Notes: generated by a model from the letters alone, not told the origin. A stretch of DNA of 63,997 nucleotides, filler included, from Stramenopiles sp. TOSAG23-2 (GCA_900128395.1; 6 parts of 6 records of this genome joined end to end with filler, not necessarily neighbours in it), one strand, 5' to 3'; positions 21,745 to 60,896 are shown, counted from the first letter of the whole stretch. Made by a program: numbers and translations.

Positions 21745-21746
21745 AT

Positions 21747-22576
21747 GAAATTCAGAAAACAGTTGTGTGCTTTGCTCCTGATAAAGCGAATTTGCCACAC
21801 CCCCCGCCATTAACAGAGAAAACATTTGATGGTCACGGTAGCGGTGACATGTGTGGACAATATACATATTCATATGATTGTTTCCCATCTTTACAAAAAT
21901 CATTGTTCATCGATCCACGTCCATTGCCAGAAATGCCAATTGATCCAAAAGAAGCATCTGCAAGCAGTCGCCGTAAAAATGCCGGATTTTGGGTCACTCA
22001 TCCTGGGACGAAGAAAGAGTATAATTCCGATTCAACCATATATTGCGTATGGTTTTTAACATTGGCAGCAATCAGTAGCAACGATGTACAAGACATGGAT
22101 GGTCCAACCACTGCTACAAATAATAAAGTAAGCAATAGGAAAAGAATGAAATCTAGTGTGAAAAGGAGAAGGCAACAATTGCGACGATTGGGTAGCGCAT
22201 TTGAAATTTTGAATCGAATGAAACAGCAACAGATCGGACGTGATGAATTAATTTATAAATCATTAATTGATGCATCTGGGAGATGTGGTAGCACCCATCA
22301 TGCCTTATTAGTTTTAAAGCATATGAAAGAAGATGGCTTGAAGCCAGATTCATTGTTTTTTTCATGCCTTGCAAGTGCATTTTCGATGGATACGACAATA
22401 CCAATGGTAGGCACGTTGCCATTAGGTTTACTTGATGCATGGGAAGATAATATGAAAGATGATGATCAGAAAAATACTCCGTCATCAACTCCACAATCGG
22501 CAGCAAAAATATTGTCAAGTTCCTCCCTGCCATCAACAGCAAAAAAGACGAGTGCGATGTCTTTTTCCTCGTATTT
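21747..22576 (+). CDS. Inverted downstream part of the DENN gene, containing PPR repeats
   Basis: Begins EIQKTVVCFAPDKANLP, shared with the end of the DENN ORF; PPR units DELIYKSLIDASGRCG...ALLVLKHMKEDGLKPDSLFFSCLASAF. Confidence 0.8.
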
Positions 22577-24529
22577 TGGCGGGGGTTGTGGCAAATTCGC
22601 TTTATCAGGAGCAAAGCACACAACTGTTTTCTGAATTTCATGTTTTTCTGATTCTAAAAATGGCGTGCTGTATTTTCTAAATGTAAGCAATGAACGATTT
22701 CGCTTTTGTGCAATTGATTCATTGAAAAATTTGACATCATAATTAGCCTCTTCTTGGTCTTCATGTACACAATCATCCATAAATTTTGAAAATGTTTGTG
22801 TTTGTGTAAATATGTTGAGAAATGTTTTCGATGAGCTACGCTGTGCGTTGACGAATGAATTTACATCGAAAAATTTTCCAGTACCGGCTGATGATGAATC
22901 GCTGGAGGAATTACTATGTGATTTCGTTTTTTTACTTTTTTTAGTTATTACATATTTTTTATATTCACGAAACATGGCAACGAAAAATCTTAAAAATGCT
23001 AAACGAAGCTTATACCAATCCCTTACAATTAATTCATCATCATCATCAAACTGGTCTGCCCGCAATGCATATGAAAATGCAGAATCCATCATATTTAAAC
23101 AAGTTTCTCTCCATATACCATCATCCCCGCCACCTGGACGGTTTAATCGAACCGGCTCTGCAATTTCTTGAAGTGCTTTCACAAGTTTTTGTTCCTCCTT
23201 TTCAGGTAATGGTGGTATATCATTTGCTGTATTTGCATCCGGTATAAATATTTCATCCTTGTCTATATTTACAACAACAACGTTGCATGGTATTTCATCT
23301 TGAATCTCGTCGAATATACCGGTTTGCATCCCACAAATAAATGGCATAGGAGCTTGAAGGACTCCTAATAAAGGACGTGGCAATACTGGAATATATACAT
23401 GTTCCCATGAGAACGGGTAGAGAAAAGCCATAATGCATTCAGCAACTGCTGTTAATAATGACAGCTGCGAGGAATGAAATAATATTTTCTGTTCAAGCAA
23501 AAGGCATTTAAAAATCGACAAAGTAGTTCTAATTCCAATACATTGAAAGGTCTTATCAAATGGTAAATCTATGTTTTCAATCGGTCGATTAACTGGTGGG
23601 CGTGTAAAAATTAATTCCTTATCTGCAATGGAATATAAAATTTTAGCCATTCCTGATGGTGGCATCGGTACTTCATTCATTAAATTACATATATACCTTT
23701 CAATTGGTACATCTAATGGGGATAAAACTAAACGATACAATGATGTTAAAATATCGCGACATTGGCTGATGAAAGGATACCTAGTGATTAGGCAGAGACA
23801 TTTCGGTGCATACATTGTCGCAACAATACTTTGTCGTCGTAATTGGCTATTGCTACGACTTCTTCTCTTTTTATTATTATTACTATTATTATTATTATTA
23901 TTATTATTATTTCCATCTGACGTCACGTCTAATATTATGTCCGGCTCTGGTAATCCTGGTATGTTTCCTGCAGAATGCAAGACAGCATATGCCGCAGGTG
24001 AGATTAAATCATGTATAGTTAAGCAATGTCCATATACATGTTCTCCTCCTGCACCGGTAGATACGAACGTAAAAAATGATGGGACACAGTTATCCCTTGA
24101 AAATTTATATCCATCAGGAAAACAAAACAATGGTAAACCAGATGGAAATGGCGTTGTTTGTTTCATATCAATCCCATCTTGGGCACCATTTTCATATGGA
24201 TATCTATCTATTATATGAGCTTTAAAAACTGTTTGAAATATATTTTCCACTTTCATAGATGGAGACAATGCGCCTTTACTACTACTTCTTTTCCGAGTAG
24301 GAAATTCACCACTATTATTATTATTTTCGACGTTATTATCTTCTGGCATAGGAGATAGAGAACTTCTATCATTTTTGTTTCTAGCAATTATATTATCTTT
24401 TACTTGTTGTTGTAATTCTACAGGGCTTAATCCAACTACTACAAAATATTCTGCAAAATTTGCACGTGGTGCATTATTATTATTACTATCAACAGTTTGT
24501 TCACTATCACTACGTACAAACCCTGACAT
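22577..24529 (-). CDS. DENN-domain Rab GEF (uDENN-DENN-dDENN), DENND4-like, N-terminal part
   Basis: AEYFVVVG, IDRYP, LPLFCFPDG, PKCLCLITRYPF, LLLEQKILFHS, WEHVYIPVLP, FTQTQTFSKF. Confidence 0.92.
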
Positions 24530-30435: not shown

Positions 30436-31719
30436 TCATTTCTTTGTATTATTTACATGTTGTGTTACTTTATCAAAATCAATATCAAATGGATTTTCAT
30501 TACTACCATCATTATTAATCGCAGTAGTGGTGGTTGTAGTCGAATTAATGGGAGTAGAAGATAACGGAGAAATCAAATTAGGCGAATCATCTATACTATT
30601 ACCATCACTATTATTCTTATGTACGATTGCATTGGTAAATGTTGTTCTTATGACATTTGCTAATCCTGGTGTATTCATAATTGCATCTGCATGCGTAGAA
30701 TTAGTATCATTTGATTGTTGTATGGAATCTTCATCTAATATTTCTATTAATTCATGTGCATCGGTATCAGAAATTTCATTGTTAATATTACTGCTACTTC
30801 CATCTATATCTTGCTGTTGCTGCGTTAATTGATTATTAATAATAGTTGCTAATTGAGGTGCTTGATTGATGAAAGATTGTATAAAGTTATCTTTATTAAT
30901 TTGATCTATTGGCATACTATTTAATATATTGAAAATATCATTATCATTTGTTGATGATGTTGATGATGATGGCGTTGTTGAATTGTTATTTAAATGATTA
31001 CTCTTGCGAGATTTTTTTTTCGGTGAATTTCTCCATTGCTGAGGAGGCTTATCCTTTCGCTTGCGTCTCGAACTACTGCTATTGTTACTACTATTTCTTC
31101 TGATAGAGGTTAATTGATTTTGTGATTGATGTGTCAATGGTTCTGTCGTTGTTGGATATGTATTATTATTATTATTATTGCTGCTTTGTTGAATTGCAAC
31201 ACGAGCAGCACGCAAAGCTTTTTCATGATGTCTACTTGAATCATTTCGAAAATCATCTTCTTGATGTTGATCGTGTTGTCCGTGATGGATGAAATTGCTA
31301 CGCCGTATACTATTATTGCTGCTACCGCTGCTACCACTTGAACCAATCACGTATTGATTTGGATAAACATGGTGTTGCTGTTGTAAAGAGTCCCGAACAT
31401 CGCGTATTGTTTTATAGTGTCCTAAAAATTTAGTTAAATTGACTAATGTATTTTTTAAATATGGTTGTAATCTTGTTGCATGCTGAGATACAAATGCTCT
31501 ATTAGTCGCTTCAAAATGCAATAATCTGAAATATTCGTTCATAATAATTTCCAAAGATTTCACCTTTTTTCGCGGTGCAATGTTTTGTAATATACTTGCA
31601 CTTTCTGTTTTAAAACACTCTAATGACTTTGGAAATTTGGCTACATTATCTTGTAAATATTCTAATACTAATAATGTTAATTCATGTTCTTGAATACGTG
31701 GTGCTAATGGCGTTGCCAT
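30436..31719 (-). CDS. LisH-motif low-complexity protein
   Basis: ELTLLVLEYLQDNVAKFPKSLECFKTES LisH-like N-terminus; basic NLS-like RRKRK. Confidence 0.7.
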   Translation of the reverse strand: MATPLAPRIQEHELTLLVLEYLQDNVAKFPKSLECFKTESASILQNIAPRKKVKSLEIIMNEYFRLLHFEATNRAFVSQHATRLQPYLKNTLVNLTKFLGHYKTIRDVRDSLQQQHHVYPNQYVIGSSGSSGSSNNSIRRSNFIHHGQHDQHQEDDFRNDSSRHHEKALRAARVAIQQSSNNNNNNTYPTTTEPLTHQSQNQLTSIRRNSSNNSSSSRRKRKDKPPQQWRNSPKKKSRKSNHLNNNSTTPSSSTSSTNDNDIFNILNSMPIDQINKDNFIQSFINQAPQLATIINNQLTQQQQDIDGSSSNINNEISDTDAHELIEILDEDSIQQSNDTNSTHADAIMNTPGLANVIRTTFTNAIVHKNNSDGNSIDDSPNLISPLSSTPINSTTTTTTAINNDGSNENPFDIDFDKVTQHVNNTKK

Positions 31720-32424: not shown

Positions 32425-32479
32425 ATATTTAAAAAATACATTAGTCAATTTAACTAAATTTTTAGGACACTACAAAACT

Positions 32480-37312: not shown

Positions 37313-38743
37313 TTACGGCCCTGATTTTCCAATATTTTTAAAGCTTCTGGAAATCTCTTGAGGATTTTGTTGGTATAAAACTAGAATTCTTCCAACAAAA
37401 AAAGACAGGACTGCAACTGCTAATATTGTAAATACTGAAAAACCTGATCCACTAGTCGCTTCACTCTCTCTTTTTTTAAATTTCTCTGCCAATGCATCAT
37501 CATTTAATTTCGTAGCATCACTTTCATTATCTTTTGCAACTGCTAATATTGTAAATACTGAAAAACCTGATCCACTAGTCGCTTCACTCTCTCTTTTTTT
37601 AAATTTCTCTGCCAATGCATCATCATTTAATTTCGTAGCATCACTTTCATTATCTTTTTTGATAAAATCTTTCGTAATATTCATTGCTTCATCACGCTTC
37701 ATATCAGCTACTAATCGTAATTTCGTATTTTCTTGAGTTAATTTATTTGATAATTTCTGTAATTGATCACGTTCACCTGTCAATTGCAATGTCCATTTTA
37801 ATAATTCATCGTATTTTTTGCGTAATGTTGACATGTCTTTTTCAATTTTCTCGAAATCATAATTAACAGTTACATCTCTGTTTCTACTACTACTACTGCT
37901 GCTGCTAAAGTTATTGCTAATTGGATTATTACTAGTAGTTGATATATTGTTGTTTTTTCCAACATCCTCCTCCTTTTCTACCATTTTATCCGATTCATCA
38001 TTATTATCCGTTGTTTCTTGTTGCTCACTATCATTATCTTTATTATTACCACTGGTATCACGTTGATCATCCCCGCCATCGCCGTTTCCATCTTCCTCCG
38101 TTGCTTCCATGACATTAGCATCGTTTTGCTCATCGGCAACAGCACTTGTATTCGTACCATTTGGCTCTACAGACTCATCTTGAGTAGCTGACGATGTGAC
38201 AGGTTGCATCCAGTGAAGGGATTCAAAATTAACTGAATATTTTAAATTCTGTATTTTCGCCTTGTTCTCGGGCGTTTTAGCAAACAACCGACTTAATTGT
38301 TCTGAGACTTCACTCATACCTTCTGGAGAACCACCTTTCTCCATTAAAACTTTCATCACATTTGCCTCCACTGTACGTGTTTGTACTAGAAATTTATCAG
38401 GTGCTTCATATTTTTTCAACTGTTGGAATGATTGTGTCAACATATCATTGACATTCCTTGTCAAACAAAATACTTGGATTTTTGCATCCCCACCATGAAC
38501 AATTACGCCTTGATTTGGTTGTACCAAATATCTGTCAGTATTATTCGTCTTAACTTTAAATGCAATAGCTTTATTGCAACGGTTTGTAAGCGCTAGTGTT
38601 GAAACAGAGTCTATATGTGGAACTAACGTAAATGTTAAACCTTCATTTGTTGTTGGGTTTGTACTCACAATTTTACCTTTCCTTTTGGTACGTGCTTTTG
38701 GTGCCCCTCCGTTTCTTACGTCGCAAGCTGGACTTTCGTTCAC
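37313..38743 (-). CDS. VAP-like segment: MSP domain, coiled coil, C-terminal TM anchor (no ATG ahead of the MSP domain)
   Basis: LALTNRCNKAIAFKVKTNNTDRYLVQPNQG, DKFLVQ; tail anchor FTILAVAVLSFFVGRIL; 41-aa in-frame duplication before the anchor. Confidence 0.85.
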   Translation of the reverse strand: MNESPACDVRNGGAPKARTKRKGKIVSTNPTTNEGLTFTLVPHIDSVSTLALTNRCNKAIAFKVKTNNTDRYLVQPNQGVIVHGGDAKIQVFCLTRNVNDMLTQSFQQLKKYEAPDKFLVQTRTVEANVMKVLMEKGGSPEGMSEVSEQLSRLFAKTPENKAKIQNLKYSVNFESLHWMQPVTSSATQDESVEPNGTNTSAVADEQNDANVMEATEEDGNGDGGDDQRDTSGNNKDNDSEQQETTDNNDESDKMVEKEEDVGKNNNISTTSNNPISNNFSSSSSSSRNRDVTVNYDFEKIEKDMSTLRKKYDELLKWTLQLTGERDQLQKLSNKLTQENTKLRLVADMKRDEAMNITKDFIKKDNESDATKLNDDALAEKFKKRESEATSGSGFSVFTILAVAKDNESDATKLNDDALAEKFKKRESEATSGSGFSVFTILAVAVLSFFVGRILVLYQQNPQEISRSFKNIGKSGP

Positions 38744-40430
38744 CTAAAAGCGTATTCCCATCGTCAAATGCCAATGATATATTCATTCCCATTCCACCGG
38801 AATTAAAATTGCCTGTTCCATGATTATTTTCATATTCATCTTTATCCCCAGACGAATTAAAACCAACGCTCAAACGTCTCCTAGAATTTAAACCACCATT
38901 TCTACGTAATGCTGCACGTTGCATCATATTACTACTACTACTACCATTTGCCTGCCTATTATTATCTGCCATGTTGTTGTTACCCATTGGTAGTTTTGAT
39001 TCTATACTCAAGCGGCTATTGCTTTTTTTGCTACTGCTCCACCTTTTTGGATCCATTGGTGACATTGCCAACGCATCTAAAGATCGGTTTCTTGGTGTCA
39101 ATCGATCCCGCAAATTTGTTAATTCATCTTTACTTTCGTCTTGCATCTTCAAACTTAGCTCATTCGAAGAGTCTATATTACTGCCATTAAAACTGGTAGT
39201 GTCTGATGCCATTGACAATTGTCGTTCCTGCTGCTGGATGCTTCTTAGATTTAACATTGGTTGCTGTAATAAAATAGGCGTATTAACTACATTTGGACTT
39301 CCATTTGCAGAGTTGGCATATATCGCAGATAATTCTAAATTCTTTAAATTCGGTCGGTTGGAAGGAGTTCCATTTTCATCAGTGAAAATACCATCTTTTT
39401 GAATTTTTTCTTGTAAAAAATTTAAGTCATTAAACACTAAATGAAGCGTTTCATTTGCACGTATAGATGAATTATTATTATTATTATTATTATTACTAAC
39501 ATTATTCGGTGATGATTCATTGTCATTCATACTACCAGTAAGGGTTTTATTACTTGGGTCTTTCTCCTCCACCATTTCCATATCCGTATTTTCATTCTGA
39601 TTGTCATTGCCTTCCATGGAAGTACGCATTTGTTCATCTAATTGTTTTTGCGAAGTCATCATTGACGTTGTCATTAAATGTTGACGCGCTCGTTCAATAT
39701 CTTCCCCAGTCCACGCATTTCCATGTACAACTTCACTTAAAATCAACTCTGTCATAAGTTTCAAGCTGTCTGTTGTAGTTAAATGGGAAGCAACGATCAA
39801 TAATGCATTCCCTAATGAAAGTGTATTGCTATTTGCTGCCTCATTGTTATCAGGGTATTTATTGTTAATACCCAAATCTTCATCCAATATATCATTATTC
39901 ACGATATGGACTTGATCCGTACTACCAATACTGTCACTAACTTCATTTCTGGTTGTTAAATTTAATGCAGACGTAGATTTCGTTGCTTCTTGTTTTAAAT
40001 TACCCATGCTCATCGATGAAGCTTTGCGATGATACGATACAGGATGTAATTTATTCAATGCTTTTTCTTTTTGTTTTTTCAATTTTAATTGCCGTTTCTC
40101 TTCCGATTTTTTCTTTAACCAATACATTATACCCATGTAAAATAATGTCATAGTTAAAATCAAACCGGCAAATGCAATAAATATAAATAAAATGGTTCTT
40201 CTTTGAAATATTAATGCAACATGGTTAACAACATATAATATACTTTCGGTGACTCCAAGTTGCACTTTTGCATATGTTAAAGACGAAATTGACAGGTAAA
40301 TACTATCGTACGTTTCTTGTACAAACGTATATGCTTGTGTTTTATTTGTTATTACACCATAAAACGTATTTGTAGCACTAGAAAATGTGTTTGTAGATTT
40401 CGTATTTGCACTTTTTGTATTTTCTTTCAT
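38673..40430 (-). CDS. Membrane protein segment (TM + low complexity), probably the middle part of one long gene
   Basis: TM ILFIFIAFAGLILTMTLFYMGIMYWL; start duplicated in the upstream ORF; overlaps the VAP ORF in the +1 frame. Confidence 0.6.
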   Translation of the reverse strand: MKENTKSANTKSTNTFSSATNTFYGVITNKTQAYTFVQETYDSIYLSISSLTYAKVQLGVTESILYVVNHVALIFQRRTILFIFIAFAGLILTMTLFYMGIMYWLKKKSEEKRQLKLKKQKEKALNKLHPVSYHRKASSMSMGNLKQEATKSTSALNLTTRNEVSDSIGSTDQVHIVNNDILDEDLGINNKYPDNNEAANSNTLSLGNALLIVASHLTTTDSLKLMTELILSEVVHGNAWTGEDIERARQHLMTTSMMTSQKQLDEQMRTSMEGNDNQNENTDMEMVEEKDPSNKTLTGSMNDNESSPNNVSNNNNNNNNSSIRANETLHLVFNDLNFLQEKIQKDGIFTDENGTPSNRPNLKNLELSAIYANSANGSPNVVNTPILLQQPMLNLRSIQQQERQLSMASDTTSFNGSNIDSSNELSLKMQDESKDELTNLRDRLTPRNRSLDALAMSPMDPKRWSSSKKSNSRLSIESKLPMGNNNMADNNRQANGSSSSNMMQRAALRRNGGLNSRRRLSVGFNSSGDKDEYENNHGTGNFNSGGMGMNISLAFDDGNTLLGERKSSLRRKKRRGTKSTYQKER

Positions 40431-40765
40431 TTTATTTTCCTTTTGCTTGTGTTTTATTTGTTATTACACCATAAAACGTATTTGTAGCACTAGAAAATGT
40501 GTTTGTAGATTTCGTATTTGCACTTTTTGTATTTTCTTTCATTTTATTTTCCTTTTTTACAGGCAATTTTTTCTTCTTTGGTATGATTTGTATATTATCG
40601 GATTCTTCTTCTGCATCTACGCGGTTGTTACCCTTCTTCATTTGTTTCCTTTTCTTCTGTTTCTCTTCCTTTAATTTTCGTTTCATTAATTTCCTTTTCT
40701 TTTTCTCCTCTTTACTATGCACTGTCTTGCTTGTAGTAGCAGGATCTTGCTTCAAATTGACTTTT

Positions 40766-41625
40766 TTAGCTGCCTCGGGCAATGTTTCTTTCTCTCTTCT
40801 TCATTTGTTTCCTTTTCTTCTGTTTCTCTTCCTTTAATTTTCGTTTCATTAATTTCCTTTTCTTTTTCTCCTCTTTACTATGCACTGTCTTGCTTGTAGT
40901 AGCAGGATCTTGCTTCAAATTGACTTTTTTAGCTGCCTCGGGCAATGTTTCTTTCTCTTTCAATATGCCATCATTATCTGTGTTGCTGCTAGAGGATGAT
41001 GACGTAAAAAAGTAACTGCCAAAATCTGTCTCGGCAAATTTTATATTTTTTATATTATTTATACTAGGCATAATTTGATCATTCCATTTATCTTTAAATG
41101 GCATTGATATACTGGATAAATCAAAAATATTACTATATAAAAATGAAATTGCATATTGGAAAAAAAAGACAACAAAAATAATCAAACAACAACATCCACC
41201 AATACCATAAAATACCAATCGCTTACGTTGATTTATACTTTCACTAGTAGTACTAGTTGAATTATTAATTTTCCATTTAGTTTTTCTAAAAAAGGACGAT
41301 TTTTTCTTTTCTTTTTTTGTTTTTTTAAACGTAGTTTCTTTAATACGATCATTCTTGCCACTATTATTAGCATTTGATGATAAGTTGGACTTATTTATTG
41401 CTTCATTACTACTGTTTGACATAAAGTCTTTTCTACTTGTAGTAAAACTTGCATCATTCTTATTCTTTTTTCCCATTTCATTTTTTTCTATGTTGTCTAA
41501 CTTGAAATCATCCATATCCCCATCAATATTATTATTATTATTAAAACTTGCATCATTCTTATTCTTTTTTCCCATTTCATTTTTTTCTATGTTGTCTAAC
41601 TTGAAATCATCCATATCCCCATCAA

Positions 41626-41657
<32 letters not shown>

Positions 41658-42517
41658 GTTCCATCTAAATCTTTTGTATTGATACTATAATCATCATCTA
41701 ATGCATCTTGTATATTTTGCAATGAAGGATGTTCATTTCGAAAGCGTGATAAATCACCAAGTATACTATTGCTAAGGCCAGAACTAGCAAATGTATTTTG
41801 ATTTGTATTCTTTGCAACATCGCTTTTTTTATTTTTATCATCAACATTTTTCTTCCTTTTTCTTTCTTCTTCATCTATTTTACTCTTTCTACCATATCTT
41901 AAGCCAACAAGAGCTGATTGGACAGGACTAAGTGTTTTCGAATTATATTTTTTATTTCCGTTATTTTGTTTTTGTGTTCTAGATCTACCATATAGTTTTC
42001 GCCTATTATTAACACTTTTATTTGTATCTTTTTCCATAGTAGTAAAGTTATCTTTATCTTCAAAATTATCCTCATTTTCATCACTTTCACTGTCATCGTC
42101 ATCATCATCATTGCCCTTTCTCCCGTTCCTATAGCTTCTCCTCTTATTGTTAAATCTACTTTTGTATCTATTTGATCTAACATCAGATTTTATATTGTTG
42201 CTACTACTATCCTCATCTTCCTCCTCGCTGTCATAATCATCTTCCTCACTATCATCTTGTGTTATCGACTTGTTGAACTTTTTAAAATTAAATTTAAAAC
42301 TTTCTTCGTCATTTACATTTTTTGAACTCCCTTCTTTATTATTATTATTCTCTATACTTGAATTTCTTTCTTTTTTCTCCTCTTGAAAATGCGATTCTTT
42401 GTTTTCTATTATTGATCTAACTGCACCGATAATAACGAGACTTATCAAAATGATTAATATCCATTTGATGACAATAAATACAATGGAAAAGCTGGATGCT
42501 AATATCGCATCAATCAT
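40766..42517 (-). CDS. Membrane protein segment (N-terminal signal anchor, second TM), broken by tandem duplications
   Basis: Hydrophobic N-terminus; LVFYGIGGCCCLIIFVVFFFQYAISFLY; C-terminal sequence repeated in 40432..40782. Confidence 0.6.
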
Positions 42518-44195: not shown

Positions 44196-44524
44196 AAAAA
44201 GGGGTTCAAATATTATTAATCTATAAAATAATAGAGAGCGAGAGGTTGAGAGAATAAAAATAATACTTCGTAAAAAATTTATTATAAAAAAAAATGCATA
44301 CGAAGTACGGCTTCGTATTTTATATTTTATATACAGTTGCGCCAGAGGATTTTTTATTACGAGAGTATGATAGTTCATTATTTTAACACCAGCAGAATTT
44401 TATTTTTTTTATTTTTATGATAAATAAAAAATATATTCGTGTATATTTTTATTATTTTAATATTAACGTTTTATAGTATGAATGATACACACCGAAATCA
44501 AGTTTTTTCTCTTTTTGTTATTTT

Positions 44525-44605
44525 ATCATACCGTTTCACAAAGTTGTGTAATTTTCTTTTTATGTACACAATTTTTTATTTTTTTTTATGCGAAACAATA
44601 GTCAT
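44525..44605 (-). promoter_or_regulatory. SECIS element candidate (type II-like) in the MsrB 3' UTR
   Basis: Minus strand: AUGAC core, 12-bp helix UAUUGUUUCGCA/UGUGAAACGGUA, unpaired A-run, ministem UUGUGUA/UACACAA, then UGAU 3' core. Confidence 0.8.
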
Positions 44606-44745
44606 TCATATATATATCTTGTCTGTAAATTATTTTTTTCTACTATAACAAAGATGTATATATATAAGCAATCGGAAACTATATATAAAATATACAAATA
44701 TATAATTGTCTGTTTTTCTTTAACCATTTATATCGAAATATTTCT

Positions 44746-45195
44746 TTAAAATGCATGTAATGAATCTTCTTTCAAATCACATGCCGTTTTAACAAATTTG
44801 ACACAAATGGAGTTTATTCACTGTCTTTCGCCAGTTTCACTATGACCTTCTCTGAATACGTGCCCAAGGTGACTTCCACAATTATTACAACCAACTTCAC
44901 CACCTGAACGAACTATAACGTGTGGTCTATCATTTGTATAAAAACATTTTGAATAGGCATCCCAACCTTGGTCTTTAAATTTACTTTTGGCACTGTACAA
45001 TGGGCTATCACATGCTTTGCATACGAAATGCCCTGACTTTGGAAACAAACGGCAAAACTCACCTTGTCCATAAGCTTCAGTTCCATGTTGCCTTAAAATT
45101 CTGTATTCTTGTGGTGTTAATTTTTTTCTCCATTCCTCATCTGATAATTGATACGGATACGACGACATGTCAATACTTGAATGCGACTTTCCCAT
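44746..45195 (-). CDS. MSRB: Selenoprotein methionine-R-sulfoxide reductase (MsrB/SelR), 149 aa with Sec at UGA 44818-44820
   Basis: [15 protein letters not shown], two CxxC Zn motifs, HLGHVF, then [17 protein letters not shown] matching the conserved RxCxNS catalytic motif. Confidence 0.93.
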
Positions 45196-45847
45196 AAATA
45201 ATTTAATAAATAATTAATGAATCAAACTTTGTTCAGATAATTGATATATATATATATATTTATCTACTATATGGTATTTCACACTTGTTCCCGACTTACA
45301 CATACATCTCTAATTTATTCGCACATTTGGTTGCATGTGTGCCAATTGCAATTCGAATTCCACAGGAATTCTATTAATAATAATGGCAAAATGAAAAACT
45401 ATTTGTACTTATTAGTCTATAAATATTATACATCAGATTGATTTCCTGCTAATATTTCCTATATTAACAGTATGTGCGTATTGATCATAGGTCCGGGCCC
45501 ACAAAATGCCCAAATGAAAAATGAAAGAGAGTGCTGCCACAGTGATAGCTAATATGTCAAAGACGTATATCGATAGTAAATAATGTAAAAACAGTGCTAT
45601 TCAAAGCTATTTTAGTATATTATACTTGATAGACTATACATATAATAGTAAAGTAAATGAGGAAGGATCAAATCCTGAAGGAAGTATTTTAGGCGTAGAG
45701 TACACGCGAAGTTTCGTTTGCAAAGACCCTTAAAGTTTGCGAAGTCTGTATGGTAATGCCATTATAATAAAACCTTATTTTCTCCAGTTTTTTAATCAAT
45801 TTTTGCACATTATTTTAGTCTATAGTAAACAGTGTTATTTTATTTTT

Positions 45848-52363: not shown

Positions 52364-53890
52364 ATGACATCGTTTAATAAGAACAATACTAATATTAATA
52401 CAACTATATGTTTTCGTGTTGATGGTGACTCAACTATTGGATTAGGACATGTAGTCAGAAGTAAAGCATTAGCAAGTGTTTTTGATGAAATGAGTAATGT
52501 TAATGTAATATGGGCTAGTTGTGGAACAAGTGATAATAGTCCAAATGCAGTTGAAAAATTATATGGTCGTAGCATGAAAGATGAAGACTTGAAATTGCCA
52601 AATGGAAGTGCATGTGATTTGAATGAAGCTGAAGAAGTTGGAAAATGGGCTAGAAAATCAAACGCAACATGGATTGTTATTGACCATTATAAAATTACTG
52701 ATGAATATTTAAATCATTTGTATACTACAATGAATAATGATAATAATAACAATTCTACTATGAATAATATAAAAATTATGATTATGGATGATCATCAAAT
52801 TCGTGTAACAAATGTTGCCATGCGCTTAGCACCGATGCAAGTTTTTGAGAAATTTAATGATATTAAAACTAATAAAGACGATGATAATGTTGAAAATTTA
52901 ATTGGACCACAATATTTATTGTTACGACCAGATTTTGCATCAATTGCAAAAAAATATAATAATAGAAAGAATTATATTAGATCAGGTACTATTATATGTT
53001 TTGGTGGAGCAGATACCTTAGGAATGACGAAAAATTGTATTGAAATGTTATTAAATACACCAGGTGTATTTTTTGATCAACGTCGTAAGGAAAAGTTATA
53101 CGTATTAGCATCAGATAAAATGTGTGATATGCAAAATTTAAATGAAATAATCAAACAATATTCTGATAAACTTGGTGTTGATAAAATTGAACGTAAATCA
53201 TGGGTTGATGCAAATGATATGGCAACATTATTAAGTTCATGTAGCTATGCATTTGTAAGTTCAAGTGGCGTTGGTGTTGAAACAGTTGCAATGAAATGCC
53301 CATGTACGGTAGTATGCTGGATTGATAATCAAATTAATCATGGTAAAATAATTAAAGGATTAGGTGGTGGTTATGTTGCAAACAATATTGAAGAAATAAT
53401 CACTCAATTAAGTAGTAGTAATGTTGATGGAGCGAAGAATGATAATAATAACAATGTTACTATGATGGACCAGGAAGAAATGGAAATTATGAAAACATTA
53501 GATGGTGCTACTATTGATCCATATGGTGCATGGCGTGTTGCATCAAAAATGTTAAACATTGATTTATTGAAAAATATGATAGATGTAGAAAAAGAACAAG
53601 AAGAAGAAGAAGAAAAGAAGAATCATGAATCATGTAAAAAAATTGAAGAACAATTACGAGCAGGTTTTGACAATATTGAATTCTTATCTGTTGAAGATTT
53701 ATCGGATGGATGTGGTGATAAATTTAAAATTATAATTGTATCTGATGTTTTCGAAGGTGTTAATTTAGTAGATCGACATCGTATGGTAAATGGTTCAAAT
53801 GGTGTATTGAAAAATATTATGGATACAGTCCATGCAATGCAATTAAAAACATGGACAATAAAACAATATAAAAAAAAGATGAATAAGTGA
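52364..53890 (+). CDS. PseG/SpsG-like UDP-sugar hydrolase (GT-B fold) fused to a C-terminal BolA domain
   Basis: FRVDGDSTIGLGHVVRS, VIDHY, LIGPQYLLLRPDF, CFGGAD, DNQ; C-terminal EDLSDGCGDKFKIIIVSDVFEGVNLVDRHRMVN...VHAMQLKTWT. Confidence 0.88.
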   Translation: MTSFNKNNTNINTTICFRVDGDSTIGLGHVVRSKALASVFDEMSNVNVIWASCGTSDNSPNAVEKLYGRSMKDEDLKLPNGSACDLNEAEEVGKWARKSNATWIVIDHYKITDEYLNHLYTTMNNDNNNNSTMNNIKIMIMDDHQIRVTNVAMRLAPMQVFEKFNDIKTNKDDDNVENLIGPQYLLLRPDFASIAKKYNNRKNYIRSGTIICFGGADTLGMTKNCIEMLLNTPGVFFDQRRKEKLYVLASDKMCDMQNLNEIIKQYSDKLGVDKIERKSWVDANDMATLLSSCSYAFVSSSGVGVETVAMKCPCTVVCWIDNQINHGKIIKGLGGGYVANNIEEIITQLSSSNVDGAKNDNNNNVTMMDQEEMEIMKTLDGATIDPYGAWRVASKMLNIDLLKNMIDVEKEQEEEEEKKNHESCKKIEEQLRAGFDNIEFLSVEDLSDGCGDKFKIIIVSDVFEGVNLVDRHRMVNGSNGVLKNIMDTVHAMQLKTWTIKQYKKKMNK

Positions 53891-56436: not shown

Positions 56437-56783
56437 GAGGTTCATCCGTCAATTTATTATTCATGGTATAATCATGCTATTTCGAAAATTAAAGTTTCAT
56501 ATAGGACCTTAATATATTATGCCGTTCTGTTTTTCAGTCCATCCTTATTATACTAAAAAAATATCTTTTTTTATTGCATGATATGCATATAAAAAATGTA
56601 TATTTAATATTGGATGTGTTTGTGACATGTATGTATATATGTGTGTATAGAAAGAGAAAAAGTAACAGGAAAGAAGAGACTGTGCAATCAGTTTATCGAA
56701 TAATATATATATATATATATAAAAATATATCATAATATAATACAATACAATACTAAAGAAATTATAATAATAACAACAACAAC

Positions 56784-57680
56784 ATGGGAAGACTTGATGG
56801 AAAAGTAGCAATAATCACTGGCGGAACAAGTGGGATTGGACTGGAAACTGTTCAATTATTTATCAAAGAAGGTGCATCAGTTGTATTTTGTGGACGTGGT
56901 GAAGAAGTTGGCAAAGCAATTGCAGCGGAGCAAGGTCCAAAATGTGTCTTTGTGAAAGCAGATGTAACAAATGAAGCAGATATTAAAAGAGTTATCGATA
57001 CCACCGTTGAACATTTTGGTCATATCCATTGTTTATTTAATAACGCTGGTGGTGGTGTTGGTGTACGTGGCGTTGAAAGTGTATCTCGTAAAAACTTGGA
57101 TGCAACATTTAGGTTAAACTTTGATTCCATGGCATTGGCTACAAAAATGGCAGTTCCACATATGAAAAAAGAACGAACATCATCGATTATTAATAACTCA
57201 TCTGTTGCAGCAAAAAAAGCTGGATTTGGCGATGTTTTATATTCCGCAGCAAAAGCTGCAATGGATGGTTATGGACGTGCTGCAGCAATGGAACTTGCAA
57301 AATTTGGAATTCGTGTAAATAGCGTAAGTCCTGGAGCTACGGCGACGCCAATTTTTTGGGGCGGAAGTCCTGGAAGTGCACGTGGTAAAACATTGAGTGA
57401 AGAAGACAATGCTGTACGTCAAAAAAAAGTTGAAGATAATATTGTGAATAATGTTGTCCCATTACGTATTGGTAGAAGTGGTACTGGATATGATATTGCA
57501 ACTGCAGCATTATTCTTAGCAAGTGATGATTCTGAATGGTATACTGGTAAAGATATGATTGTTGATGGTGGTATGACGACGTTTGATGCTCCTAATAAAG
57601 GATGGATGGCAGATGAAAATGCAGTTGATCCAGTTCCATTAAGACAATATATTCAAAGACCAAAACGAAGTAAAATGTAA
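56784..57680 (+). CDS. Short-chain dehydrogenase/reductase, PTS1-like C-terminus (SKM)
   Basis: TGGTSGIG, NNAG, YSAAK, IRVNSVSPG, VDGG. Confidence 0.95.
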   Translation: MGRLDGKVAIITGGTSGIGLETVQLFIKEGASVVFCGRGEEVGKAIAAEQGPKCVFVKADVTNEADIKRVIDTTVEHFGHIHCLFNNAGGGVGVRGVESVSRKNLDATFRLNFDSMALATKMAVPHMKKERTSSIINNSSVAAKKAGFGDVLYSAAKAAMDGYGRAAAMELAKFGIRVNSVSPGATATPIFWGGSPGSARGKTLSEEDNAVRQKKVEDNIVNNVVPLRIGRSGTGYDIATAALFLASDDSEWYTGKDMIVDGGMTTFDAPNKGWMADENAVDPVPLRQYIQRPKRSKM

Positions 57681-59105: not shown

Positions 59106-60896
59106 TTATAAACGTGCTCCGACACTTGTAATCTTTTGATACGCTGCCATATCCATTAATTTATACACTCCTTTCTCCAAATAATAAATTTGATCGCTAA
59201 CTTTAACAGGATCTATACCATCATTCCTCATTTGTACTTTTTGATGTTTAAAGGTTCCAGTAATTTGCATTTGTGGCAATATTCTTAAGAAAACAGGAAC
59301 GGAATAAGACGGTAAAGAACTACTAGCATGTGTATAAAAACGTTGCAAATTTTCCGCGGATGTATCGGGCATGATCATCGCACAACACCCAGCCCTACCA
59401 TCTTCATTGTTGGGTATTTGAACTCCATATACATTGACTTCATCAACATTTGGAAATTTTGCTAATTCGGTTGCAACTTCAGCAGTGCTTACATTTTCTC
59501 CTTTCCATCTGAATGTATCGCCAATACGATCAACAAAATATACCCAGTTTTTTTCATCTACTTTCATCAAATCACCTGTTCTTGTAAACATATCTCCAGC
59601 TTCAAATACATTTTCAAGCAACTTTTTTTTTGTAGCTTCTTTATTTGTATAACCTACAAATTCAGTCTCACCTTTAATCACTTTTACTACCATTTCCCCA
59701 GGTTCATTTACATCAGCTTTAATACAGTATCCATTGCTATCGCGTATTAATTCATCTTTTTCCACATCATATTTTAAAAACATTATGTTTTCATTTGTTA
59801 ATTGTCCAACACTGCCATAACCATCATAATTCCCTTTTTTCAAATTATCTAGGAAAATATAGTTTTGAAATCCGCCTGTACCTTCCGTGGATCCATAAAA
59901 TTCAACTATGATATCCACTCCAAAACGTATCTGGAACGTATCCCAATATTCTGGTCTCAATCCATTGCCAATCATGAATCTTAACGTATTTTCATCATCA
60001 TTTGCTTCTTCAGGGATTGATAAGATATAACGAGCAAGTTCACCAATATATTGACCAATTGTAACTTTGTATTTACGTATATCGCTTAACCAATTCTTTG
60101 CACTGAATTTTTTTCGAATCACATAAGTTAAACCAGCACAAACTACATATCCAATTCCAATCATACCAGCAGCACTATGATACAATGGCATCCCACCTCC
60201 ATATCCAACATCCGTATCGGAAAATAATGCTTGACCCCCGATACCAATATTGCAATATTTAAGATGTTGTATAATTGAAGCTTTTGGTAAACCAGTCGTT
60301 CCAGATGTGTAAATATAACACATCGTATCTGTATATTTCACACCTTTTCGATATGTATTAGAAAATGTTGTTGTCGGCTGTACAAATAATTCGCCATCGA
60401 TAGAACGACAAAAATTACATGTGCCACTCATTATGATTTGCTCAATACCATTCATTGTCAAATCTCTTGCAACATCTTTAACGACATTGGTCAATTCAGC
60501 TCCAAATATGACCATTTTTGCTTGCGAGACACTTATGGAATGAACTAATGGTGCTAATTTAATGGTATTATTTATCCATGCTGTTATGATTCCCAGCTTT
60601 GCAAATCCAAGCCATAATGCAACAAACTCCGGACGATTTTCAAAGAACAGTGCAACTGTATCTCCCTTTTTTAATCCTTGTTCCAAAGCCCAATGTGCAA
60701 CTTGATTTGCAATTGCATCAACATTGTTAAATGTCAATGCACGTGGTGGAAAATTATTCTCTGGGTCTCCAAGATAATGAAAACAAATTTTATCTTTTTT
60801 TTTCGCAACAGTTTCCTCCCATTGTTCGGCAATTGAATATGTTTCAGCATTTTTACGTGCTTGTATCATTTGTTGCACTTTATCAGCAGCGGCCAT
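59106..60896 (-). CDS. FATP/SLC27-type very-long-chain acyl-CoA synthetase, PTS1 (ARL)
   Basis: YIYTSGTTGLPKA, EFYGSTEG, FVDRIGDTFRWKGENVST, ITGTFKHQK. Confidence 0.95.
   Translation of the reverse strand: MAAADKVQQMIQARKNAETYSIAEQWEETVAKKKDKICFHYLGDPENNFPPRALTFNNVDAIANQVAHWALEQGLKKGDTVALFFENRPEFVALWLGFAKLGIITAWINNTIKLAPLVHSISVSQAKMVIFGAELTNVVKDVARDLTMNGIEQIIMSGTCNFCRSIDGELFVQPTTTFSNTYRKGVKYTDTMCYIYTSGTTGLPKASIIQHLKYCNIGIGGQALFSDTDVGYGGGMPLYHSAAGMIGIGYVVCAGLTYVIRKKFSAKNWLSDIRKYKVTIGQYIGELARYILSIPEEANDDENTLRFMIGNGLRPEYWDTFQIRFGVDIIVEFYGSTEGTGGFQNYIFLDNLKKGNYDGYGSVGQLTNENIMFLKYDVEKDELIRDSNGYCIKADVNEPGEMVVKVIKGETEFVGYTNKEATKKKLLENVFEAGDMFTRTGDLMKVDEKNWVYFVDRIGDTFRWKGENVSTAEVATELAKFPNVDEVNVYGVQIPNNEDGRAGCCAMIMPDTSAENLQRFYTHASSSLPSYSVPVFLRILPQMQITGTFKHQKVQMRNDGIDPVKVSDQIYYLEKGVYKLMDMAAYQKITSVGARL

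Follow-up and report, generated by a model that had tools for sequence, protein, structure and literature searches.

A probable hidden selenoprotein MsrB with a Cys-type active site and a candidate N-terminal lipid anchor in Stramenopiles sp. TOSAG23-2

The locus and its surroundings

The window, as we call the whole stretch of DNA that was analysed, comprises 63,997 nucleotides of Stramenopiles sp. TOSAG23-2 (GCA_900128395.1), with six records of this genome joined end to end by filler. It has a GC content of about 30%, and marine metagenomes and metatranscriptomes contain its DNA as well. Its genes are of an ordinary eukaryotic sort, with a nitronate monooxygenase, an SDR protein, an ankyrin protein, TMA7, half a kinase domain and an ORF ending in BolA; an acyl-CoA synthetase is also found in it, and no tRNA was detected within the window by ARAGORN. 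The gene considered here, for a proposed selenocysteine-type (Sec-type) methionine sulfoxide reductase B (MsrB), is located on the minus strand. The features that are needed below are as follows.

44746..45195, minus strand: coding sequence of the proposed Sec-type MsrB, 149 codons plus TAA, single exon, 450 nt
44818..44820, minus strand: in-frame TGA, codon 126, the proposed selenocysteine and catalytic residue in R-Q-U-I-N-S
44749..44817, minus strand: tail behind the UGA, residues 127-149, conserved in homologues and in the DNA of a metagenome locus, L001
45010..45021, minus strand: first CxxC, C59/C62, structural zinc site, its columns invariant in alignments A1 and A2
44878..44889, minus strand: second CxxC, C103/C106, zinc site, with invariant columns, followed by GSHLGHVF (His109, His112, Val113)
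45178..45195, minus strand: M-G-K-S-H-S start, candidate N-myristoylation site (Gly2, Ser6)
44425..44745, minus strand: 3' UTR as far as the RNA-library contigs reach (X6 record 20, X18 record 5)
44525..44605, minus strand: SECIS-like hairpin, on which the MFE and centroid folds agree
59106..60896: acyl-CoA synthetase, whose homologues are transcripts from environmental samples or from MMETSP

Several other properties of the window were recorded. Of the 508-aa ORF at 52364-53890 (plus strand), Pfam recognises just a BolA domain at the C-terminal end (residues 448-500, E 6.8e-12); the large part in front of it has no match. Head-to-tail duplications with 99-100% identity are present at 37412-37657, 40332-40555, 40633-40958 and 41440-41637 (123, 112, 163 and 99 nt, respectively), and two of the four repeat protein segments within the ORFs 37313-38443 and 40766-42517; they could be very recent or could be assembly artefacts. 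In each of two inverted repeats, 21745-21822 / 22564-22641 (78 nt, 91%) and 31409-31462 / 32425-32478 (54 nt, 98%), one arm adjoins a run of N and copies, on the opposite strand, coding sequence from the gene next to it; such an arrangement resembles an assembly artefact of the fold-back or chimeric kind.

Reading frame and domain assignment

Conventional translation of the minus strand yields an ORF of 125 aa, MGKSHS...GERQ, from the ATG at 45195-45193 to the TGA at 44820-44818. The starting point of this study was a sequence-only reading, according to which the stop after GERQ is a TGA behind which the frame continues, and the translation bears this out: with TGA read as a sense codon the frame stays open for 23 more codons, to the TAA at 44748-44746, for a total of 149 aa. 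The same frame has a TAA 21 nt upstream of the ATG, and inspection by eye of the 85 nt upstream (45280 to 45196) found no second ATG.

The catalytic residue of MsrB enzymes sits in the RxCxNS motif and is Sec in SelR/MsrB1. In the window protein, the Pfam SelR domain (PF01641) matches residues 26-135, spanning the TGA, with an E-value of 1.4e-26 and 93.2 bits versus a cutoff of 24.9. When the protein is aligned by phmmer with MsrBs of known structure, the TGA comes to lie at the catalytic Cys (RYCINS or RFCINS) of 6tr8, 2l1u and 6q9v, in line with the earlier proposal. The best matches among solved structures are of the MsrB2/MsrB3 type (E 1e-20 to 1e-22), and the MsrB1 chains reach only 1.5e-6. 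Both zinc-site CxxC pairs are present. The pocket motif GWPSF is not matched: the window protein, like most of the Sec-type clade described below, has GWDAY, with the Trp kept. GWDAY is a variant pocket motif and no ground to exclude the protein from the MsrB family.

An AlphaFold2 model built from an alignment of 20 rows (mean pLDDT 75) places strands at residues 123-127, 132-135 and 142-145, with a block pLDDT of 89 for residues 131-140 and 75 for residues 141-149. When this model was compared with known structures by Foldseek, MSRB3 and bacterial MsrBs ranked first (TMq 0.63-0.71, E down to 7.6e-12), and the model superimposes on MSRB3 and on the MsrB of B. pseudomallei with a TM of 0.69-0.71. 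According to the model, the peptide encoded behind the UGA is predicted to belong to the MsrB fold.

Authenticity of the TGA and the genetic code

The TGA is no sequencing error. Four coded marine runs, drawn from four studies, supplied contigs that were placed on 44300-45400, and in three of these runs a contig bridges the TGA unchanged: X17 record 1 (44643-45201, polyA RNA library), X18 record 5 (44513-45127, oligo-dT RNA library) and X4 record 13 (44463-45240, DNA). In the fourth, X6 record 20 (44425-44848, RNA library) covers the TGA with just 28 letters on one side. The observation named in advance as speaking against the sequence-only reading was TGT or TGC at 44818-44820; neither occurs in the placed contigs of the four marine runs. 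A diverged minor contig, X18 record 7, which has about 30 letters on the tail side of the TGA, keeps it next to synonymous changes in codon 125 (CAG>CAA) and codon 124 (AGA>CGA). Contigs from RNA libraries are not in themselves proof of transcription. Since no joints break the main contigs, the MsrB gene looks single-exon.

The use of TGA elsewhere in the window was also considered. The 24 other long ORFs, about 12,400 codons in all, contain 189 TGT/TGC and 142 TGG codons but not a single in-frame TGA, which serves as the stop codon of six of them. As TGA counted as a stop when these ORFs were delimited, the argument lies in the fact that such long frames exist at all and not in a chance absence of TGA. 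Judged from these frames, UGA is not a general sense codon in this organism. Reading through TGA lengthens 33 frames of the window, among which, by eye, only that of MsrB resembles a protein family.

Homologues and conservation of the UGA and the tail

A word-indexed homologue search returned 541 matches, and the closest 36 (P0002-P0037, 50-97% identity to the query) were classified. The sequence-only reading had foreseen that standard annotation would truncate such a protein, and this is what has happened to 28 of the 36 in the public databases: they end exactly after ER[QH], just before the catalytic residue. Three more (P0003, P0015 and P0019) were called with W at the site and then continue into a conserved tail with the consensus [IV]NS[IV]CV.[FY].K.A...L[HN]AF; conservation of this tail is also seen in P0050. 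Another two (P0031 and P0033, with 88% identity to the query) have GERQ-C-MY[YF]LHN, after which they pass into unrelated AT-rich sequence. The letters C-M-Y would fit T|GTATGTA, an intron that begins inside the Sec codon. Two homologues diverge a few residues before the site, probably also owing to introns, and one is a fragment. No clean Cys form is present among the 36. In the alignment P0010 matches P0003 yet breaks off at the site, a difference that would follow if two code tables had been applied to one sequence.

Metagenome loci were scanned at the level of DNA. Among the best 80 of 591 loci, 79 carry Cys-type MsrBs with at most 48% identity to the query, and the exception is L001, a GC-rich locus whose MsrB is 46% identical and broken by apparent short introns. 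Its DNA reads ...KERH TGA GTC AAC TCG..., or ERH-U-VNSVCTKYVKGAPP. The TGA and the tail are therefore conserved across very different base compositions, and the suggested check on the peptide behind the UGA comes out in favour of the initial proposal, the tail being kept both in homologous proteins and in the DNA of L001. A scan of viral contigs gave two partial, distant matches.

The MsrB of L001 lies at positions 694-1310 of that locus, is of the GWDAY type and has the N-terminus MALPQT, without Gly2.

Phylogeny of the Sec-type clade

An exhaustive search of 1.84 billion representatives gave 7112 relatives at E <= 0.001. Two trees were built by quick maximum likelihood from about 120 columns, with the rows cut at the residue before the catalytic site. 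In the first tree, from which rows without the anchoring motifs were excluded (168 rows, comprising 130 Cys and 38 Sec-type, the Sec label of homologues being deduced from where their gene calls end), all Sec-type rows fall on one side of a single branch with an SH-aLRT support of 90, and the group is nested within the eukaryotic Cys group with the GWPAF...ERHCVNS pattern. One change suffices to explain the distribution of Sec and Cys labels on this tree, as compared with 34.5 in shuffles.

The second tree has 90 rows and left out the rows of the GWPS type. In this tree P0265, a GWDSY protein with Cys that had been dropped from the first tree, is positioned inside the Sec clade with support 98, and with P0265 included two label changes are needed. 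Apparently, one switch from Cys to Sec was followed by one reversal from Sec to Cys, in P0265. The only named member of the clade is a transcript of Lotharella oceanica (cluster P0037, 57% identical to the query). Two members, P0328 and P0350, are glutaredoxin-MsrB fusions (Pfam Glutaredoxin, 6e-17 and 5e-17), and the MsrB part of both ends at the Sec position.

The active site and its recycling

Cys-type MsrBs have His, Val or Ile, and Asn in the active site, where MsrB1 instead has Gly77, Glu81 and Phe97 together with the resolving Cys4 (PMC1278935). The window protein has His109, Val113 and Asn128, as mapped by eye from the motif, and thus lacks the Gly/Glu/Phe set of MsrB1; there is no Cys in its residues 1-47 and hence no MsrB1-like N-terminal resolving Cys. 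On these residues the active site appears to be Cys-type, and the protein would be the Sec version of a Cys-type enzyme. Because of His109/Val113/Asn128, the lack of Cys before residue 48 and the weak match to MsrB1, we do not consider it an MsrB1 orthologue. As the His/Val/Asn set of Cys-type MsrBs is retained, the Sec form would have arisen separately from that of vertebrate MsrB1.

Engineered Sec forms of MsrB2 and MsrB3 show activities raised more than 100-fold and need an added resolving Cys for recycling by thioredoxin (PMC1278935). The canonical resolving position (CGW) is Gln in the window protein, and C48 and C84 are nearly invariant in the alignment of the clade. In the proposed reaction, attack of Sec126 on the sulfoxide of Met-R-SO would free Met and convert Sec126 to a selenenic acid, which may then be recycled either by a resolving Cys, with C48 and C84 as candidates, or by glutathione and glutaredoxin. 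The fusions P0328 and P0350 hint at glutaredoxin as the reductant.

The 3' UTR and its SECIS-like hairpin

Recoding of the UGA is most likely aided by a putative SECIS hairpin, type-II-like in form, that lies about 212 nt downstream in the 3' UTR. The hairpin starts 140 nt after the TAA and folds with -14.3 kcal/mol (z = -2.4; 4 of 200 shuffles fold as well). Its parts, all on the minus strand, are the following.

44605-44602, minus strand: AUGA, in the context A-AUGA-C (44606-44601)
44600-44589 paired with 44540-44529, minus strand: helix II, 12 bp
44588-44572, minus strand: A-rich internal loop, 17 nt
44571-44565 paired with 44550-44544, minus strand: mini-helix, 7 bp, with a 14-nt loop
44528-44525, minus strand: UGAU

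AUGA and GA could make up a kink-turn quartet of tandem sheared G.A pairs, as in a type-II-like SECIS. Other features speak against a SECIS: the first unpaired A comes 14 nt after the AUGA, a spacing at the upper edge of the usual range, the A-rich internal loop is long, and no clear helix I is evident in the hairpin of the MsrB 3' UTR. A hand-written SECIS pattern (ATGA plus one base, a helix of 9 bp or more, AA within 4 nt and finally NGA) found two sites only on both strands of the window, the MsrB hairpin and a weak site at 56578 of the plus strand. In 200 first-order shuffles the pattern occurred 0.39 times per window, and 0.025 times when the helix was at least 12 bp long.

The second site (plus strand, 56578-56651) was rejected as a SECIS: with three G.U pairs in its 9-bp helix and a position upstream of the SDR gene (56784-57680), it is probably due to chance.

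Variation among the marine contigs fits the structure of the hairpin. With the variant 44531 C>T, which X6, X18 and X4 all carry, a helix pair that was G.U becomes A-U, and insertions of X18 at 44560 and 44578 are in the apical and internal loops; three more differences between contigs lie just upstream of the hairpin. In L001, a hairpin with AUGA...GA at 1344-1387 starts about 34 nt past the stop codon; its helix counts 11 positions, one of them mismatched, and its 14-nt loop lacks a 5' AA. It was picked up by a relaxed pattern, to which the other loci have about one match per 22 kb, so that the L001 hairpin lends modest support to the SECIS assignment.

No Rfam family reached its gathering score in the whole window, and the Rfam SECIS models gave no match at E <= 10 on either 1.1 kb or 131 nt of sequence. 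At this threshold the matches near the hairpin were weak and unrelated, e.g., mir-2 and TeloSII_ncR49; the 3' region of L001 gave no Rfam SECIS match either.

The N-terminus and a candidate lipid anchor

The protein starts with MGKSHS and has the Gly2/Ser6 spacing described in the sequence-only reading, which had suggested a membrane-tethered enzyme. With regard to the positions that matter in substrates of N-myristoyltransferase (NMT), Gly2 and a small residue (Ser) at position 6 are present. After removal of Met1, Gly2 would probably be N-myristoylated and the enzyme held at membranes. Lipid anchoring is plausible, and we would set its odds at slightly above even.

The competing view, that the Sec-MsrB is soluble and non-lipidated and that its MG start is incidental, is an alternative that we rate somewhat below an even chance. 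An MG start is shared by 14 of the 36 closest homologues, and 12 fit MGxxx[S/A]; these 12 differ from one another at positions 3-5 but retain Gly2 and Ser/Ala6, which argues against an incidental origin. The other 24 lack MGxxx[S/A], and close relatives start with MSSVDM, MSIDES or similar, in favour of a soluble protein; MGxxx[S/A] therefore marks a sub-lineage and not the whole clade. P0245, a member of the 90% cluster, has S instead of G2. Lys3, which follows Gly2 in the window protein, is excluded by the old PROSITE myristoylation pattern and to that extent favours the soluble form. Against this, Gly-myristoylation is documented for some twelve human NMT substrates that start with Gly-Lys and so have Lys3, ARF6 and the hippocalcin family among them (PMC7048800). 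Residues 1-14 have a pLDDT below 50 and are modelled as disordered by AlphaFold2; such a segment would be accessible, again in disagreement with a purely incidental MG. Among the matches listed for MsrB plus myristoylation in the literature, no title or abstract opening mentions a myristoylated MsrB.

Discussion

The initial proposal of a Sec enzyme is supported by the TGA at the position of the catalytic Cys, its recurrence across the clade, the conserved tail and the SECIS-like hairpin. We put the probability that a hidden Sec-MsrB is real and correctly interpreted here at about 0.85. The fuller explanation, in which a Zn-binding MsrB would receive Sec126 through SECIS-aided reading of UGA, would be recycled after each turnover and would probably be myristoylated on Gly2, is also considered quite probable. 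Of its elements, the anatomy of the gene, the place of the TGA and its conservation, the tail and the fold come from the data themselves, and insertion of Sec, a working SECIS, the way of recycling and the lipid are deduced from them.

Apart from the soluble form weighed above, two other explanations concern the UGA itself. According to the first, it is decoded but not as Sec: a variant code would give Cys or Trp, or near-cognate read-through would take place without Sec machinery. The W given at this codon in three database calls points in this direction and reflects only the code table chosen by the gene caller. A variant code is at odds with about 12,400 codons of 24 ORFs that contain no TGA, together with 189 TGT/TGC and 142 TGG, and with the six ORFs ending in TGA. 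Moreover, the single in-frame TGA lies exactly on the redox-active Cys position, in the known pattern of Sec/Cys exchange, the hairpin has the AUGA/GA core, and Trp at the catalytic position, given the mechanism of MsrB, would make a dead enzyme; we regard such decoding as improbable. The second, a true stop giving a 125-residue product without the catalytic residue and last strands (a decaying pseudogene or a non-catalytic zinc-binding fragment), is very hard to credit: the gene calls of 28 of the 36 homologues do end there, TGA is the ordinary stop of six of the 24 other long ORFs and Rfam finds no SECIS, but the 23 downstream codons are open and conserved from an AT-rich to a GC-rich genome, the TGA is fixed across a clade of 50-97% identity with synonymous changes adjoining it, the Cys form P0265 inside the clade shows that the position is used, the tail lies within a confidently modelled fold, and a SECIS-like hairpin is present.

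The hidden Sec-MsrB can be compared with several known systems. Vertebrate MsrB1 (SelR/SelX) is alike in the MsrB fold, the zinc site, the UGA-encoded catalytic Sec and the SECIS in the 3' UTR, the last two being predicted for the window protein; it differs in having Gly77/Glu81/Phe97 and Cys4 (PMC1278935), in contrast to His109/Val113/Asn128 here. The Cys-type eukaryotic MsrBs (mammalian MsrB2 and MsrB3, the GWPAF...ERHCVNS group) share with the window protein His/Val/Asn, the two CxxC pairs and the C-terminal [IV]NS strand. They have Cys where the window protein has UGA, GWP[AS]F as opposed to GWDAY, and the canonical resolving Cys (CGW), whereas the window protein has Gln.

Misannotation of selenoproteins is well known, and among non-vertebrates the MsrB of Metridium senile is known to contain four Sec residues and to be served by two SECIS elements. 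The impression that a Sec-MsrB is a rarity has to be tempered. Sec-MsrB was treated as animal-specific by Lobanov et al. in 2007 (PMC2375036). Later, Jiang et al. (2020) listed MSRB among 42 algal selenoprotein families, and thus a protist Sec-MsrB is already known; nearly 90% of the algal genomes have Cys or other homologues of MSRB, and it is mostly in this form that the family occurs (PMC7539508). Our comparison with the algal Sec-MSRB is by family listing, not by sequence, and the passages of that paper on the family make no mention of N-terminal lipidation (PMC7539508). An N-terminal myristoyl group is found in another methionine sulfoxide reductase, mouse cytosolic MsrA (Kim et al., cited in PMC7795007), which resembles the window protein in this respect, myristoylation being a candidate feature here, and differs from it in an unrelated fold, specificity for the S-epimer and a catalytic Cys.

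What may be new is the combination of a single-origin clade, a Cys-type active site, a pocket of the GWDAY type, fusions to glutaredoxin and a candidate lipid anchor. The more general picture, in which an ocean-wide protist clade of single origin has Sec in a Cys-type site, has exchanged the GWPSF pocket for GWDAY, has given up the canonical resolving Cys for recycling by glutaredoxin and glutathione and, in the sub-lineage of the window protein, has acquired an N-myristoyl anchor, is put forward tentatively and as somewhat doubtful.

Given that the public gene calls of 28 of the 36 closest homologues break off at the catalytic residue, functional surveys of marine protists undercount both active MsrB and the use of selenium. 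The Sec clade would represent a natural counterpart of the engineered Sec forms of MsrB2 and MsrB3 (PMC1278935). If the N-terminus is lipidated, the clade adds a membrane-anchored member to the methionine sulfoxide reductases, and the MsrB of the window would be a membrane-tethered selenoenzyme that repairs Met-R-sulfoxide at membranes.
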